Assembly (NCBI GenBank): GCA_965219385.1
Contig: CBDCNM010000002.1
Location: 4,412,305 to 4,476,304 of the forward strand
Source of the DNA: Candidatus Latescibacterota bacterium
GTDB taxonomy: Bacteria > Latescibacterota > UBA2968 > UBA8231
DNA: 64,000 bases
Direction of reading: 5' to 3'
In this document: piece by piece, positions 50,248-59,548 of the stretch
Position numbering within the stretch: the stretch's first letter is position 1
Layout: every line of letters begins with the position of its first letter
The notes under the pieces: model-generated
The model's input: the letters and a program-made list of their open reading frames with translations, nothing else
Databases searched by the model: none
Told to the model about the DNA's origin: nothing
Program-made: the position numbers and the translations under genes

Positions 50248-50523
50248 TTACTGGTCTTTGTCGAACAGGTGGGTAAACTTCAGTTCGAGTTGCTGCGCCA
50301 GGGCGTCCAGAACTTGTGCGGCCGTCCCGGGGCGCTCCCTCTTCTCGGTCCATTGCCACTGGTCCAGGTAGTCGTCGCTGCCTTCCAGACCTTCCTCCAT
50401 GGCGATGCGGTCGATTTCCAGCTGGAAGCGCTCGCTCAGAGGGCGCGACACCGGCCGGCGGCCCTCAAAGGCCCGTATCTGGGCCGGGATTTCTCTCCAG
50501 TAAAGAATCTGGTACTCAGCCAT
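50248..50523 (-). CDS. Small Virulence_fact (CvfA/B/C-like) domain protein associated with corrinoid clusters
   Basis: [37 protein letters not shown]. Confidence 0.72.
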
Positions 50524-50530
50524 GATGGAT

Positions 50531-51541
50531 TCAATCCGTTTCAAGTCCCAGATGGGTGTAGGCGGCCCGGCGAAATGCCCTGATGTGGGCGGGGGTAGTG
50601 CCGCAGCACCCACCAATAAAATAAGCCCCCTGGTCGAGGAGAGCGGGCACAAGGACCTCCATATCCTCGGGTGTTTGCGAGTAGTAGGTCAGGTGGTTTT
50701 CGTCCAGGAGCGGCATACCGGCGTTGGGATAGGCCATTATTTTTTTGCAGATGCCCCTGGCGGCCATGGCTTCTCTGAGTTGCCCGGTGCCGTTTACCGC
50801 ATAGGGCATGCCGGTGTGCTCGAGGTGGCGCGATTCGGCGCCGCAGTTCAGGCCCAGGATATGAACGTGGTCCAGGAGGTTGGCGCCACTGGAAAACCTT
50901 CCCGAGGACAGTACATCCACCAGGTCCGCGGCCGAATGACCCCAGTCGGTGCGATACACCACTTTTTTAGTGGGGCGATCCACGGTGTACTTGTAGGTCA
51001 TACTCACCGCGACCGGCAACCCGGTTTTGCGGGCCTCGTCTACAGCTATGGCCGCTTCGTTGGCGGAAAACTGGGTTTCGATGCAAAAGAAATCGACCCC
51101 GGCTTCGGCCATGGTCTGCGCCATTCTTTTGTGCGCCTCCCTGACCCGGTGATTGGCAATCCCGAAGTCGACGTCCCCGGCGTCGGCTTCGATGGCGCCG
51201 GGAGAGGGGCCCATGGACCCGGCGATGTATATGTCCCGGCCGCTTTTTTCGACCGCTTTTTGAGCGTGCTCCACGGCGTGCCGGACAATGGTATCAGCCG
51301 CGGCGCTGTCTTTACCTGCCATTTCGAGGTGCAGGGATGAAGCCACAAAGGTATTGGTTCCGATGGCCTCGGCGCCCGCTTCGATGAAGGCCCAGTGGAC
51401 CCCGACTACGTCCTCCGGGTGGGACTCGTTGGCCAGGGTGCTGTTGGTCAGCTGTACCCCCCTGGCGAAGAGTGCGGCCCCAAAACCGCCGTCGTAGATC
51501 ATGGGGCGGGGGTCCTCCAGTCTTTCAGGTAGGGATTTCAC
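50531..51541 (-). CDS. Homocysteine S-methyltransferase domain protein (stand-alone MetH N-domain)
   Basis: YDGGFG, EAGAEAIGTNTF, GLNCG, AYPNAG.P, IGGCCGTTPAHI. Confidence 0.9.
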   Translation of the reverse strand: MKSLPERLEDPRPMIYDGGFGAALFARGVQLTNSTLANESHPEDVVGVHWAFIEAGAEAIGTNTFVASSLHLEMAGKDSAAADTIVRHAVEHAQKAVEKSGRDIYIAGSMGPSPGAIEADAGDVDFGIANHRVREAHKRMAQTMAEAGVDFFCIETQFSANEAAIAVDEARKTGLPVAVSMTYKYTVDRPTKKVVYRTDWGHSAADLVDVLSSGRFSSGANLLDHVHILGLNCGAESRHLEHTGMPYAVNGTGQLREAMAARGICKKIMAYPNAGMPLLDENHLTYYSQTPEDMEVLVPALLDQGAYFIGGCCGTTPAHIRAFRRAAYTHLGLETD

Positions 51542-51542
51542 C

Positions 51543-52586
51543 TTAATAGGCCTTTAATGCGCCCTTGCGAAAAGCGCGCAGAAAGCTTTTGCAATTGCGG
51601 TCTCGTCCCAGGAGCATGTCCTCGGCGAGCTGGTAAGGGGTTGAATCCCGATCGATGGAGAAGACGTGCCCGAGGTGACTGGTGATCGGATCGATGATTC
51701 CACTATCCGCCCCGGCTTCGATGGCCAGAATGAAAAAGACATCGTTGACCAGGCGCCGGGTGGGCAGTCCGAAGGAGACATTGCTGAAGCCGCCGGAAAT
51801 GTGGATCTCGGGTCCGTAGCTGTGGCGCAGGCGGCGAATGGCATCTAGGCAGTGGTTGACGAATCGTCCGTCTACCGAGATGGGGAATACCAGGGGATCG
51901 ATGTAGATATCCTGGATCGCGATGTTCTTGTCCAGAGCGGCATCTACCATGCGCGAGGCATTGACAACCCGCTCCTCGGCGTCCTGGGGCATGCCTTTTT
52001 CACCCGCGGCCGTGACCATGACATGGGTGTTGTATTTCAGGGCCAGATCCAGGGCCCCGAGCCGTTCCAGCGAGGCCGAGTTCAGCATGGTCCGGTCCTT
52101 GCCGCCGCCGGCTTCGAGCCCCTTTTCGATGGTCTCGATATTGGATGAATCCACCGAAAGAGGGGTGGAGGACATCTCCTGTACGGTCTGCACCAGCCAT
52201 TGTATGGCTTCCTGTTGCTCTTCGGGTTTCAGGGAGATTTCGTCCACGTTCAGGTCGAGAAAATCCGCTCCGGCTTCTTTCTGGCGCCGGACCAGGCGCT
52301 CCAGGTAGGCCATGCCCTCGGCAGCTTCAGGTTCGCGGTCTGACATGGCCGCCTGGATGGCTATTTTGACGTGCTTGACGCGACCTTCCTCGTAATCCTG
52401 GGTGCGTTTGATGTCCTCGGGTATCACCAGGTAGCGCCGCTGTCCCTCCGCGCCTGTAAACCGCACGGCCTCGGCTCCGTCGTCGGGGCGGTTGGCGACC
52501 AGCTTGCCCCGGCGCAATACGATGCGGGTGGTGTGGACGTTTTCGCCGATGGCGATGAATGCTTTTTCCAGCCCTTTGATTTTCAT
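51543..52586 (-). CDS. Pterin-binding methyltetrahydrofolate:corrinoid methyltransferase (AcsE/MetH-like)
   Basis: IGENV, GADFLDLN, PLSVDS, LNSAS, IDPLVFPI, GFSNVSFGLP; ATGA overlap with the upstream gene. Confidence 0.87.
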   Translation of the reverse strand: MKIKGLEKAFIAIGENVHTTRIVLRRGKLVANRPDDGAEAVRFTGAEGQRRYLVIPEDIKRTQDYEEGRVKHVKIAIQAAMSDREPEAAEGMAYLERLVRRQKEAGADFLDLNVDEISLKPEEQQEAIQWLVQTVQEMSSTPLSVDSSNIETIEKGLEAGGGKDRTMLNSASLERLGALDLALKYNTHVMVTAAGEKGMPQDAEERVVNASRMVDAALDKNIAIQDIYIDPLVFPISVDGRFVNHCLDAIRRLRHSYGPEIHISGGFSNVSFGLPTRRLVNDVFFILAIEAGADSGIIDPITSHLGHVFSIDRDSTPYQLAEDMLLGRDRNCKSFLRAFRKGALKAY

Positions 52587-57959: not shown

Positions 57960-58589
57960 TTATTCTTGTTGGCTGGGAGCGGAGAGAACCCCGCGCGAGG
58001 CGGATTGCTCCTGTTCCCGCATCACCGCCCGTACATTGGGGGCGCGCACCAGGATCAGACCGACCAGAGGGTCGTGGCCCTGCCCGCAGGAAAAGGCGAC
58101 TTGGTCCTCGGCCTGGTCCTCCATCTGTCCCAGTTTGATCAGGCCGCCGGCAATGGCCGAAACCCGCCGTTCCACATTCTTGCCGGTGCTTGCGGCCCCG
58201 ACCCGGTAGACCCCGTCGCCCAGGCTGGAGACGGCGATGTCGCAGTCGGCTTTTTTGTCGAAAACGCGCAGGGGACGTGCGGTGTAAGGTTGGCTGGGAT
58301 CGAGCTTGCAGGCCTCGAGAAAAAGCCGTTTGCAGGCCAGTTCGTGCGCGGCTCCGCAAGGAAAGCAGAGCAGACCATCCGGGGTTGATTCCATGCCTCC
58401 CAGGGCAATCATGGCCTGCCTCACGGATTCGACGCGCAAAGAAGCCCCTTCCAGGCCGCTGTAGGTGTGGACCAGAAACTCGGGTCCGCTTTCCCGCTCC
58501 TGGCGGTACAGGGCAAGGGAGATGTCGTGGAAATGAGGGTCCATCGGGACCAGCTCGATTCGACTGCCAATATCGACGGTGCGGCCCAT
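57960..58589 (-). CDS. Hypothetical protein, first gene of the corrinoid operon
   Basis: 209-aa ORF with a GAGG ribosome-binding site; FPCGAAH and FSCGQGH motifs. Confidence 0.75.
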   Translation of the reverse strand: MGRTVDIGSRIELVPMDPHFHDISLALYRQERESGPEFLVHTYSGLEGASLRVESVRQAMIALGGMESTPDGLLCFPCGAAHELACKRLFLEACKLDPSQPYTARPLRVFDKKADCDIAVSSLGDGVYRVGAASTGKNVERRVSAIAGGLIKLGQMEDQAEDQVAFSCGQGHDPLVGLILVRAPNVRAVMREQEQSASRGVLSAPSQQE

Positions 58590-58623
58590 GCTTGGTTTAC
58601 CTCGTTTTTGAGCCAGTATTTGC

Positions 58624-58678
58624 TTGACAGCAGAGAAAAAGGTCAGCTATTTTTAATTGAGCTGATGGTCTGACCTTT
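58624..58678. promoter_or_regulatory. Divergent promoter with a GntR/FadR-type operator candidate
   Basis: TTGACA at 58624; AAAGGTCAG (58638-58646) / CTGACCTTT (58670-58678) inverted repeat including TGGTCTGACC. Confidence 0.6.
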
Positions 58679-58801
58679 AGAATGATATATAAGCTTAAAC
58701 CAGGATGGAGATCTTGTAAAGCTAGTTTTTGGGATTGAGCCCTCTTCACCTCGGTGATTTCACCTTATAACTATCTATCATTTATATATTTAGGAGATAA
58801 T

Positions 58802-59548
58802 ATGGCCCTGGACACTCCACTCCGGGAAAACCTGGCCATGGAGGAAATGAAACCCGTTGCCCGGGCTTCCTTGAGCGATAAGATTGTAGAACAGCTCATA
58901 GACCTGATTTCCCGCGAGGTGCTCAAACCCGGGGAGCGGCTCCCGTCCGAAAGGGAACTGTGCAAGAAATTCGGGGTAGGGCGTACTTCACTGCGAGAGG
59001 CGCTGCGCTCTTTGTCGGTCATGGGGATTCTGGATGGACGGGTTGGAGAGGGTACCTTTGTCTGCAACAACAACAAGAAATACCTGGAAAAAACCCTGCA
59101 ATGGGGCTTCCTGCTCGACCGCAAAAAAGTCCAGGATCTGATCGAAACCAGGCTCATGCTGGAATCCCAGACCGCTTTTCTGGCGACCCAGAGGGCCACG
59201 GAGGAGGATGTCCAGGAAATCGAACAGACCCTCCGGGGGATGGGAGAAACCCTCAAGCAGCCCGAGCAATACCTGGAATTTGATTTGCGTTTCCATCTCC
59301 TGATAGCCCGGGCCACGCAGAATTCGATCCTCTACAGTATGCTCAGTACCACCCGTGGTTATTTGCAGGAGTGGATCAAAGGCAGCCTGGCCGAAAGGGC
59401 GGGGAAACGGGCTATCCTATCGCTGCGGGAGCACGAGCACATCCTCAAAGCCCTCCGCAAGGGGAGGGCCGAGGACGCCCGCCAGGCCATGAAGGAACAC
59501 ATCCTCTCCAGCAGTATCGACCTGCAGACGCATATCCCCGAGGACTAG
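58802..59548 (+). CDS. GntR/FadR family transcriptional regulator
   Basis: LKPGERLPSERELC..FGVGRTSLREAL, GEGTFV; FCD domain DLRFH..IARATQN. Confidence 0.92.
   Translation: MALDTPLRENLAMEEMKPVARASLSDKIVEQLIDLISREVLKPGERLPSERELCKKFGVGRTSLREALRSLSVMGILDGRVGEGTFVCNNNKKYLEKTLQWGFLLDRKKVQDLIETRLMLESQTAFLATQRATEEDVQEIEQTLRGMGETLKQPEQYLEFDLRFHLLIARATQNSILYSMLSTTRGYLQEWIKGSLAERAGKRAILSLREHEHILKALRKGRAEDARQAMKEHILSSSIDLQTHIPED

Follow-up and report, generated by a model that had tools for sequence, protein, structure and literature searches.

A conserved corrinoid methyltransferase cassette with a probable MtaA-like substrate-specific enzyme in Candidatus Latescibacterota

We examined a 64,000-nucleotide (nt) stretch of DNA (hereafter the window) from Candidatus Latescibacterota, the phylum name used here (GenBank assembly GCA_965219385.1, contig CBDCNM010000002.1, positions 4,412,305 to 4,476,304), and describe in it an eight-gene operon that combines an MtaA-like zinc methyltransferase with a stand-alone corrinoid protein, a corrinoid activator and separate methyltransferases for tetrahydrofolate (THF) and homocysteine. 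We assign a probability of roughly one half to the reading that this operon is a methionine and folate hub organized around one shared corrinoid protein and fed by an input of methyl groups from methyl-sulfur compounds. The underlying cassette is real, conserved and uncharacterised; no publication on it or on the 209-amino-acid (aa) protein encoded by its first gene was found, most subscription journals and the supplements of genome papers lying outside the search.

In the mechanism that we propose, the MtaA-like enzyme, likely helped by the 209-aa partner, would demethylate a small methyl-sulfur compound and charge the corrinoid protein with the methyl group, candidate donors being methanethiol, dimethyl sulfide (DMS) or a methylmercaptopropionate-like thioether, and the homocysteine methyltransferase would then turn this methyl group into that of methionine. 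When the donor is absent, MetF and the pterin methyltransferase would feed the same corrinoid from folate, so that the operon would also be the cell's methionine synthase; when it is in excess, these two enzymes could run backwards to methylene-THF. The activator, RACo, would re-reduce the cobalt.

Composition of the operon

All eight genes are present at the place, in the order and with the tight or overlapping packing that the original prediction from the DNA had described, divergent from a gene for a FadR-type regulator. The intergenic distances along the operon are 17, 22, 8, -4, -4, 1 and 7 nt. Pfam and NCBIfam searches recovered the same domains that had been assigned by eye (URO-D, corrinoid, RACo, MetF-DUF5981, Pterin_bind, S-methyl_trans, Virulence_fact and GntR plus FCD):

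58589 to 50248, minus strand: the operon of eight genes
57960..58589, minus strand: 209-aa partner protein (the 'orphan'), no Pfam or NCBIfam family, 972 homologs
56899..57942, minus strand: MtaA-like (MT2/SCMT-family) zinc methyltransferase, 347 aa; URO-D, TIGR01463
56112..56876, minus strand: stand-alone corrinoid protein, 254 aa; B12-binding and cap domains, DxHxxG intact
54187..56103, minus strand: RamA/RACo corrinoid activator, 638 aa; Fer2 and RACo domains
52583..54190, minus strand: MetF fused to a C-terminal DUF5981 (MetV-like) eight-cysteine domain; MTHFR and DUF5981
51543..52586, minus strand: stand-alone pterin-binding methyl-THF:corrinoid methyltransferase (MtgD-like), 347 aa; Pterin_bind
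50531..51541, minus strand: stand-alone homocysteine methyltransferase (MtgE-like), 336 aa; S-methyl_trans, GxNC and GGCC zinc motifs intact
50248..50523, minus strand: accessory 91-aa PF13769 'Virulence_fact' protein, a Pfam match
58802..59548, plus strand: divergent GntR/FadR-subfamily regulator, 248 aa from the ATG used (open frame from 58754); GntR and FCD domains

The motifs of these proteins are conserved among their homologs: GD[LM]HDIG is found in 101/101 corrinoid proteins, which align from residue 1, GxNC and GGCC in 48/48 and 47/47 homocysteine methyltransferases, respectively, and the eight cysteines of the MetF C-terminal domain in 41/41 sequences.

The MtaA-like enzyme and its zinc site

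The MtaA-like protein passes the cut-offs of two MtaA/CmuA-type models, TIGR01463 (247.3 versus 235.4) and PRK06252 (261.2 versus 244), and falls below those of the coenzyme M (CoM) methyltransferase equivalogs for MtaA and MtbA (NF040654, 236.5 versus 400; NF041608, 196.2 versus 600). Its structural model lies nearest to Methanosarcina mazei MtaA (PDB: 4ay7 and 4ay8), with a template-modelling (TM) score of 0.92-0.93, a root-mean-square deviation (rmsd) of 1.6-1.7 and 30% identity; the match to MtaA (Z 47.7, TM 0.93) clearly exceeds that to UroD (Z 35.3, TM about 0.8). The three predicted zinc ligands, H240, C242 and C318, are invariant in all 150 distinct core sequences.

Such a His-Cys-Cys site marks the sulfur and selenium methyltransferases of the UroD superfamily, as against the O-methyltransferases and O-demethylases, which put carboxylates in place of cysteine (PMC10418091). 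There are also precedents for MT2-family enzymes that act as the substrate-specific methyltransferase (MT1), namely MtpA and MtsA (10.1101/548461), and for S/Se demethylases within the MtaA-like family, namely ClMlp2 and SdmABC (PMC10418091; PMC11097638). The presence of all three ligands would place the protein with the S/Se methyltransferases and supplies a candidate MT1 whose predicted chemistry points to sulfur or selenium rather than to O-methyl or halide donors. The original prediction had held that no substrate-specific MT1 is recognisable in the operon; this is misleading, since the MtaA-like protein is probably that enzyme itself. Of the thiols, methyl halides and O-methyl donors that it had listed for MtaA/CmuA enzymes, the thiol type, extended to selenium, is favoured by the zinc site, and the other two are disfavoured.

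Three other identities were considered and rejected. The protein is not HemE, the uroporphyrinogen decarboxylase, in that it scores 64.3 against the TIGR01464 cut-off of 302.95 and the genome has a far stronger URO-D match on contig C1, which is HemE-like and unlinked to the cluster. It is not CmuA, as it and the corrinoid protein are encoded by two genes 22 nt apart that are separate in related loci as well. An O-demethylase or CdmB identity is opposed by the His-Cys-Cys site, which is neither carboxylate-substituted nor absent. A search of plasmid records for MtsA, MtpA, CmuA, MecC/E and O-demethylase references yielded none of these (20 records, all below 28% identity), and in a PDB search the sole such reference was MtaA.

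A sister family with 41-47% identity shares the same His-Cys-Cys ligands. It adjoins a DUF6786 (PF20583) gene in seven of 12 loci (L215, L218, L219 and L222-L225), some with sugar-catabolic neighbours, and neither the 209-aa partner (where tested) nor a corrinoid gene was found in the fetched stretches. A possible tie of this DUF6786-adjacent family to the Bacteroides locus BT_0340-0343 and to methylated sugars was looked for in the literature, and no functional paper on it was found.

The 209-aa partner protein

The first gene had been labelled an orphan, a description that no longer applies, as its product belongs to a conserved family of 972 homologs of similar length (276 representatives upon clustering at 50%), members of which occur in records named Poribacteria, Gemmatimonadota, Opitutales, Rhodospirillales, Pirellulales and Dehalococcoidia. 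An AlphaFold2 (AF2) model (predicted local distance difference test, pLDDT, 83.6) displays two alpha/beta halves, each bearing a CxxxH motif (C78/H82 and C168/H172). In a set of 177 homologs C78, C168 and H172 are each conserved in 175 and H82 in 174, and the protein is likely to bind metal. Foldseek recovered no match to the model at E<=0.001 and the Atlas no usable one, and the best match with VIA (Z 6.7, rmsd 3.1, 89 residues aligned) is not clear of background.

The next gene downstream is that of the MtaA-like enzyme in 79 of 80 genome loci, in 64 of the 65 metagenome loci that extend far enough to show it and in 18/20 relative loci, and the two still co-occur where they are unlinked (genomes G026, G030, G073 and G074). 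Three genomes in which the distant MtaA-like paralog stands alone yielded no partner. A complex prediction for the two proteins scored 0.00 in two runs with the controls not folded, and is evidence neither way.

A probable methionine synthase role in the host genome

The host genome (G000) amounts to 5.8 Mb in two contigs and is 94% complete. Each cluster protein is single-copy in it by tblastn, it has one Fhs, and the only MetF/MTHFR, corrinoid protein and homocysteine methyltransferase found in it are those of the cluster. At this completeness, searches for a fused MetH, a PF02965 domain and a full-length MetE found none of them. The cluster thereby presents the parts of a split methionine synthase of the Phaeobacter type, in agreement with the original prediction: PF02574, PF00809 and PF02607 plus PF02310 stand on separate proteins, the activator is RamA-like, and PF02965 is absent. 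The operon probably serves the cell as its methionine synthase too.

As the only B12-type methionine synthase found in the genome, the cluster should have some basal expression. The operon was earlier taken to be an inducible pathway; with no other MetF, corrinoid protein or homocysteine methyltransferase found in the genome, it probably does more than serve as an inducible side route. Sponge metatranscriptomes (four runs from one study, as contigs only) were not used as evidence of expression, since short identical pieces fall on operon and flanks alike and may be DNA, and a good part of the depth is due to other organisms.

The earlier statement that MttB, MtaB and MtmB are lacking stands in part: a search for MttB/MtgB (PF06253), which matched its control in M. 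acetivorans, gave 0 matches genome-wide, while MtaB and MtmB are absent among the cluster genes, the genome not having been searched for them.

Distribution and direction of methyl flow

The cassette is widespread, as came out of a search for its conservation. The MtaA-like gene occurs at an identity of at least 68% in 111 of 140 genomes of the phylum, including 109 of 116 of its own class, and is likewise present in 30/32 genomes of a second phylum (that of genome G060) and in 1/401 genomes of the class of genome G063. In its own class and in the second phylum the identity is about 80%. Across the fetched loci the MtaA-like protein retains 73-92% identity, with a median of 84% that equals that of the corrinoid protein and exceeds that of the homocysteine methyltransferase (63%).

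We surveyed gene content in 68 genomes, consisting of 41 relatives, G000 included, and 27 genomes picked from 80 loci with long contigs favoured, using as queries the pterin, corrinoid, MtaA-like and homocysteine proteins and PF02965. The tally was made by hand and leaves the weak stand-alone PF02965 matches of G048 and G051 out of the MetH count. A full-length core gene is carried by 61 of the 68 (G003, where it is cut at a contig end, was left out). Among these carriers 22 have only the stand-alone pterin enzyme, 30 only a fused MetH, six both and three neither, such that the cassette is present in 36 genomes that also have a MetH-type gene. Hence, genomes mostly have either the MetF/pterin arm or a fused MetH, the arm acting largely as a substitute for the latter. 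This agrees with de novo methionine synthesis as the principal task of the arm, which is itself dispensable.

The stand-alone pterin enzyme is missing in 33 carriers, every one of which keeps a close homocysteine methyltransferase. In these genomes the corrinoid protein is left with two partners only, the MtaA-like enzyme and the homocysteine methyltransferase, and the known direction of the latter is methionine synthesis, which favours methyl input through the MtaA-like enzyme. Genome G063 retains the cassette despite a full MetE and a canonical MetF, and has no pterin methyltransferase or MetH. Conversely, ten of 80 metagenome loci have the pterin gene directly after that for RACo and lack a homocysteine enzyme, a statement that holds at the level of the locus only. 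The constant core thus consists of the partner, the MtaA-like enzyme, the corrinoid protein and RACo, and it is the acceptor side that varies, as expected if the MtaA-like enzyme were the donor-side step.

These patterns make methyl input from a methyl donor, which the original prediction had proposed, the likeliest role of the operon, and suggest that methyl groups would enter via the MtaA-like enzyme. As to the two destinations that it had named, methionine and methylene-THF, the methionine arm fits, and oxidation to methylene-THF is a possibility only.

The FadR-type regulator and its predicted operator

A FadR homolog lies divergently and directly upstream of the 209-aa gene in 52 distinct loci. 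The palindrome reported earlier in the intergenic region is a real inverted repeat with 9-nt arms at 58638-58646 and 58670-58678. The element that is kept across genomes is a short regulator box within it, and not the long-spaced second arm:

58667..58675, minus strand: FadR-type operator box GGTCAGACC, inside the 58638-58678 inverted repeat; a conserved pattern, with binding predicted
58624..58653, plus strand: sigma70-like promoter match facing the FadR gene, 10/12 matches; a consensus match only (one found, 0.6 expected)

We take the box at 58667-58675 to resemble that of the FadR subfamily. With a pattern built from the window's own site we searched 176 distinct loci, in each case the 200 nt preceding the partner gene. 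The pattern was found in 38 of the 52 loci where a divergent FadR is adjacent (one of the loci being that of the window), in 4 of 9 with FadR nearby and in 3 of 115 without FadR, compared with 0.36, 0.04 and 1.46, respectively, after shuffling. The loci include kin and are hence not independent; the contrast is nonetheless large. FadR would repress the operon via this box, and the operon may be inducible.

Candidate donors

Neighbour scans (107 and 86 chosen ORFs, plus clustering) revealed no recurring transporter or product-catabolic gene, which fits a volatile or endogenous donor. DmdA over its cut-off was found in 0/5 genomes and ComA in 1/5, G000 not being that one. These counts do not support links to dimethylsulfoniopropionate (DMSP)/methylmercaptopropionate (MMPA) or to CoM; together with the lack of a transporter they make a volatile or endogenous compound a better fit than imported MMPA or methyl-CoM. 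More specifically, the MtaA-like enzyme and its partner, which would be a metal-binding protein of new fold, might constitute a two-subunit MT1 for a near-universal B12-dependent demethylation of volatile methyl-sulfur or methyl-selenium compounds (methanethiol, DMS, methylselenol or dimethylselenide) in uncultured sponge and ocean bacteria, a tentative proposal that we hold to be somewhat doubtful.

Two side observations concern this subject. At G000:C2:1929691-1932021 a sequence of the GcvT family matches the DmdA model (254 bits versus a cut-off of 410), beside another GcvT-family gene; it is split over two frames and possibly frameshifted. A D-2-hydroxyacid dehydrogenase is encoded near the cassette in seven of 80 metagenome loci (L148, L149, L171, L182, L183, L190 and L192), too few to build on, and some of these carry a different GntR/FCD regulator or a canonical MetF.

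Several points weigh against a hub fed by methyl-sulfur input. The gene-content logic is formally symmetric, so that methionine or methyl-THF could be the donors, and methyl transfer from a thioether to Co(I) costs about 20 kJ/mol (10.1101/548461). Absences in metagenome-assembled genomes are soft (G005 is 90% complete, and there is no completeness figure for G047 and G063), and six of the 61 carriers lack a close homocysteine methyltransferase (of these, three encode a divergent enzyme, one is cut by a contig end and two were incompletely scored). None of the scanned neighbour genes points to a donor, and the DmdA and ComA counts leave the DMSP/MMPA and CoM links unsupported. CobS was found in 0/5 genomes, so the corrinoid is probably salvaged and the system would depend on this supply. 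Finally, G000 encodes four short MetE-like proteins with Meth_synt_2 only, below all NCBIfam cut-offs and unlinked to the cluster, that could be alternative acceptors or methionine synthases. They lie at L116:5293-6324, L117:5215-6360, L118:5375-6424 and L119:5027-6109, one being near selA/selB and one beside two acyl-CoA ligases.

Alternative functions

The alternative that survives best, which we nevertheless consider unlikely, makes the MtaA-like enzyme a true MT2 at an output step, methylating a thiol, sulfide or selenide at the expense of methyl-THF or methionine, be it for detoxification, as a methyl sink or in biosynthesis. Transfer in this direction is thermodynamically downhill and is the normal role of MtaA, the nearest structure, and for the sister family, with the same zinc site and its DUF6786 and sugar-catabolic neighbours, a methyl sink is conceivable. 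In the 33 carriers that lack the pterin enzyme, however, the only donor would be methionine via a reversed homocysteine enzyme, for which the literature searched offered no precedent. Moreover, genome G047, in which no match to MetF, the pterin methyltransferase, MetH or full MetE was found, would be left without a methionine-methylating route among those searched.

Selenium recovery appears less probable again: the MtaA-like enzyme would demethylate methylselenol, dimethylselenide or kin to selenide for SelD, the methyl group being dumped on homocysteine or THF. The His-Cys-Cys site fits selenium as well, ClMlp2 and SdmABC are precedents, and the interchangeable acceptor side and the lack of a recurring transporter agree with it. 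We scored SelD in the 140 genomes of the phylum because MtaA-like clusters of anaerobes have been tied to methyl-selenides (PMC10418091; PMC11097638). It is present in 110 of the 111 carriers, only one of the 22 SelD-negative genomes is a carrier, and genera g7 and g10 of the same family lack both SelD and the cassette. Nonetheless, this pattern tracks lineage and probably lifestyle, with few independent events. The cassette is found without SelD over the cut-off in G027 (98% complete) and in G063, the second phylum does not discriminate (SelD in 32/32, cassette in 30/32), and no sel gene stands beside the cassette among the scanned neighbours. In that phylum (G060 and G570-G597) SelD mostly lies in a long open frame (some 700-880 aa) that lacks the in-frame TGA of the SelD genes in Latescibacterota and Poribacteria.

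A methyl halide or O-methyl donor, as in the Cmu, Mec, Cdm or O-demethylase systems, for example a sponge halometabolite or a methylated sugar, is quite improbable. TIGR01463 does span MtaA and CmuA, the UroD superfamily includes halide and O-methyl enzymes (PMC13222342), and the roseobacter MtgC groups near the corrinoid domain of CmuA (PMC12478193). Against these stand a zinc site that is neither carboxylate-substituted (PMC10418091) nor lost as in the zinc-free CdmB (PMC13222342), the absence of the corrinoid fusion of CmuA, and the occurrence of the gene in nearly all genomes of the class, which suits a ubiquitous substrate better than a xenobiotic.

Least probable is a constitutive split methionine synthase with the MtaA-like and orphan genes as accessories, for instance in cofactor repair or as a second homocysteine-methylating enzyme, which would account for the sole B12-type set of G000 and the complementarity of the folate arm to MetH, and not for the cassette being kept beside MetH-type genes or the full MetE of G063, for an MtaA-like protein whose conservation equals that of the corrinoid protein and surpasses that of the homocysteine enzyme, or for the conserved FadR box.

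Relationship to known corrinoid systems

The original prediction had allowed that a described system might match the cluster gene for gene; none does, and it differs from every system compared. It would function like roseobacter MtgBCDE with MtgB replaced, without being a member of that system, as it has no MtgB. Ruegeria pomeroyi MtgBCDE with MetF2 and RamA (PMC12478193) and the three-part MetH of Phaeobacter inhibens (PMC5764234) share with it one stand-alone corrinoid protein common to pterin, homocysteine and substrate-side methyltransferases, RamA-type activation in place of an S-adenosylmethionine (AdoMet) domain, a link between MetF and the pterin gene, and the dual role in methionine synthesis. 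Here, in contrast to MtgBCDE, there is no MttB/MtgB in the genome, the substrate side consists of an MT2-family zinc enzyme with a partner that has no clear fold match, and scores fall below the NCBIfam cut-offs (MtgC 204.8 versus 370; PRK07534 128.6 versus 338). Differing from both these systems, all genes lie in one FadR-linked operon, and DUF1638 is not among the cluster genes (a genome-wide search for it was not made).

Methanosarcina MtpA/MtpC and MtsA/MtsB (10.1101/548461) resemble it in pairing an MT2-family zinc MT1 with a separate corrinoid protein, with chemistry of the His-Cys-Cys type; they differ in having CoM rather than homocysteine or THF as acceptor, an archaeal instead of a bacterial host, and no counterpart of the extra partner, the comparison by sequence being to MtaA only (30%). 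The type 1 mlp clusters and SdmABC (PMC10418091; PMC11097638), reported only from obligate anaerobes, have in common with it an MtaA-like His-Cys-Cys enzyme, a corrinoid protein, a Ram/RACE activator in non-methanogens and a strong association with the selenium machinery. They have two or three Mlp proteins, whereas the operon has one, together with a homocysteine methyltransferase and the partner; its THF methyltransferase (51543-52586) would exclude it under the authors' rule of no THF methyltransferase within 20 kb (PMC10418091). The Cmu, Mec and Cdm methyl-halide systems (PMC13222342) likewise combine a UroD-fold MT1, a corrinoid protein and a THF methyltransferase. The operon has no CmuA-like fusion, and unlike CdmB, which is zinc-free and near the O-demethylases, its enzyme is closest to MtaA and has three zinc ligands.

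The broad conservation suggests that the substrate is probably common and its use overlooked. Were the donor methanethiol, DMS or a methyl-selenide, the cassette would newly mark the B12-dependent removal of these gases, a sink unrecognised outside methanogens, and a way of making methionine without folate. The question can be approached in vitro and in a heterologous host by way of the conserved FadR box and of a minimal form with six genes, which encode the partner, the MtaA-like enzyme, the corrinoid protein, RACo, the homocysteine methyltransferase and the PF13769 protein, and the 209-aa partner and the four-cysteine domain described below are structure targets in their own right.

Accessory domains and neighbouring genes

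RACo has an extra N-terminal domain of about 80 aa ahead of its 2Fe-2S domain (residues 1-80; window 55864-56103), in which C35, C44, C50 and C65 are invariant in 94/94 sequences. It matches no Pfam family; in the Atlas it is similar to unnamed clusters of 78-84-aa proteins (score 0.85-0.86), which we regard as a lead only. The PF13769 gene recurs beside pterin or homocysteine methyltransferase genes in many loci, and its Pfam name is not evidence of virulence.

Past the last operon gene, mnmG/gidA begins after 4 nt (window 50243-50248), a linkage seen mainly within the same family. MnmG uses methylene-THF, and read-through into it from an operon containing MetF could therefore matter. On the other side, an APH-family kinase distantly like methylthioribose kinase (window 59550-60722; TIGR01767, 67.5 versus a cut-off of 275) adjoins FadR in the same family, probably as ancestral synteny with lipA. 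Lastly, two transposase-like ORFs of 487 and 219 aa, judged as such by sequence, occupy the end of the window (61817-63936).

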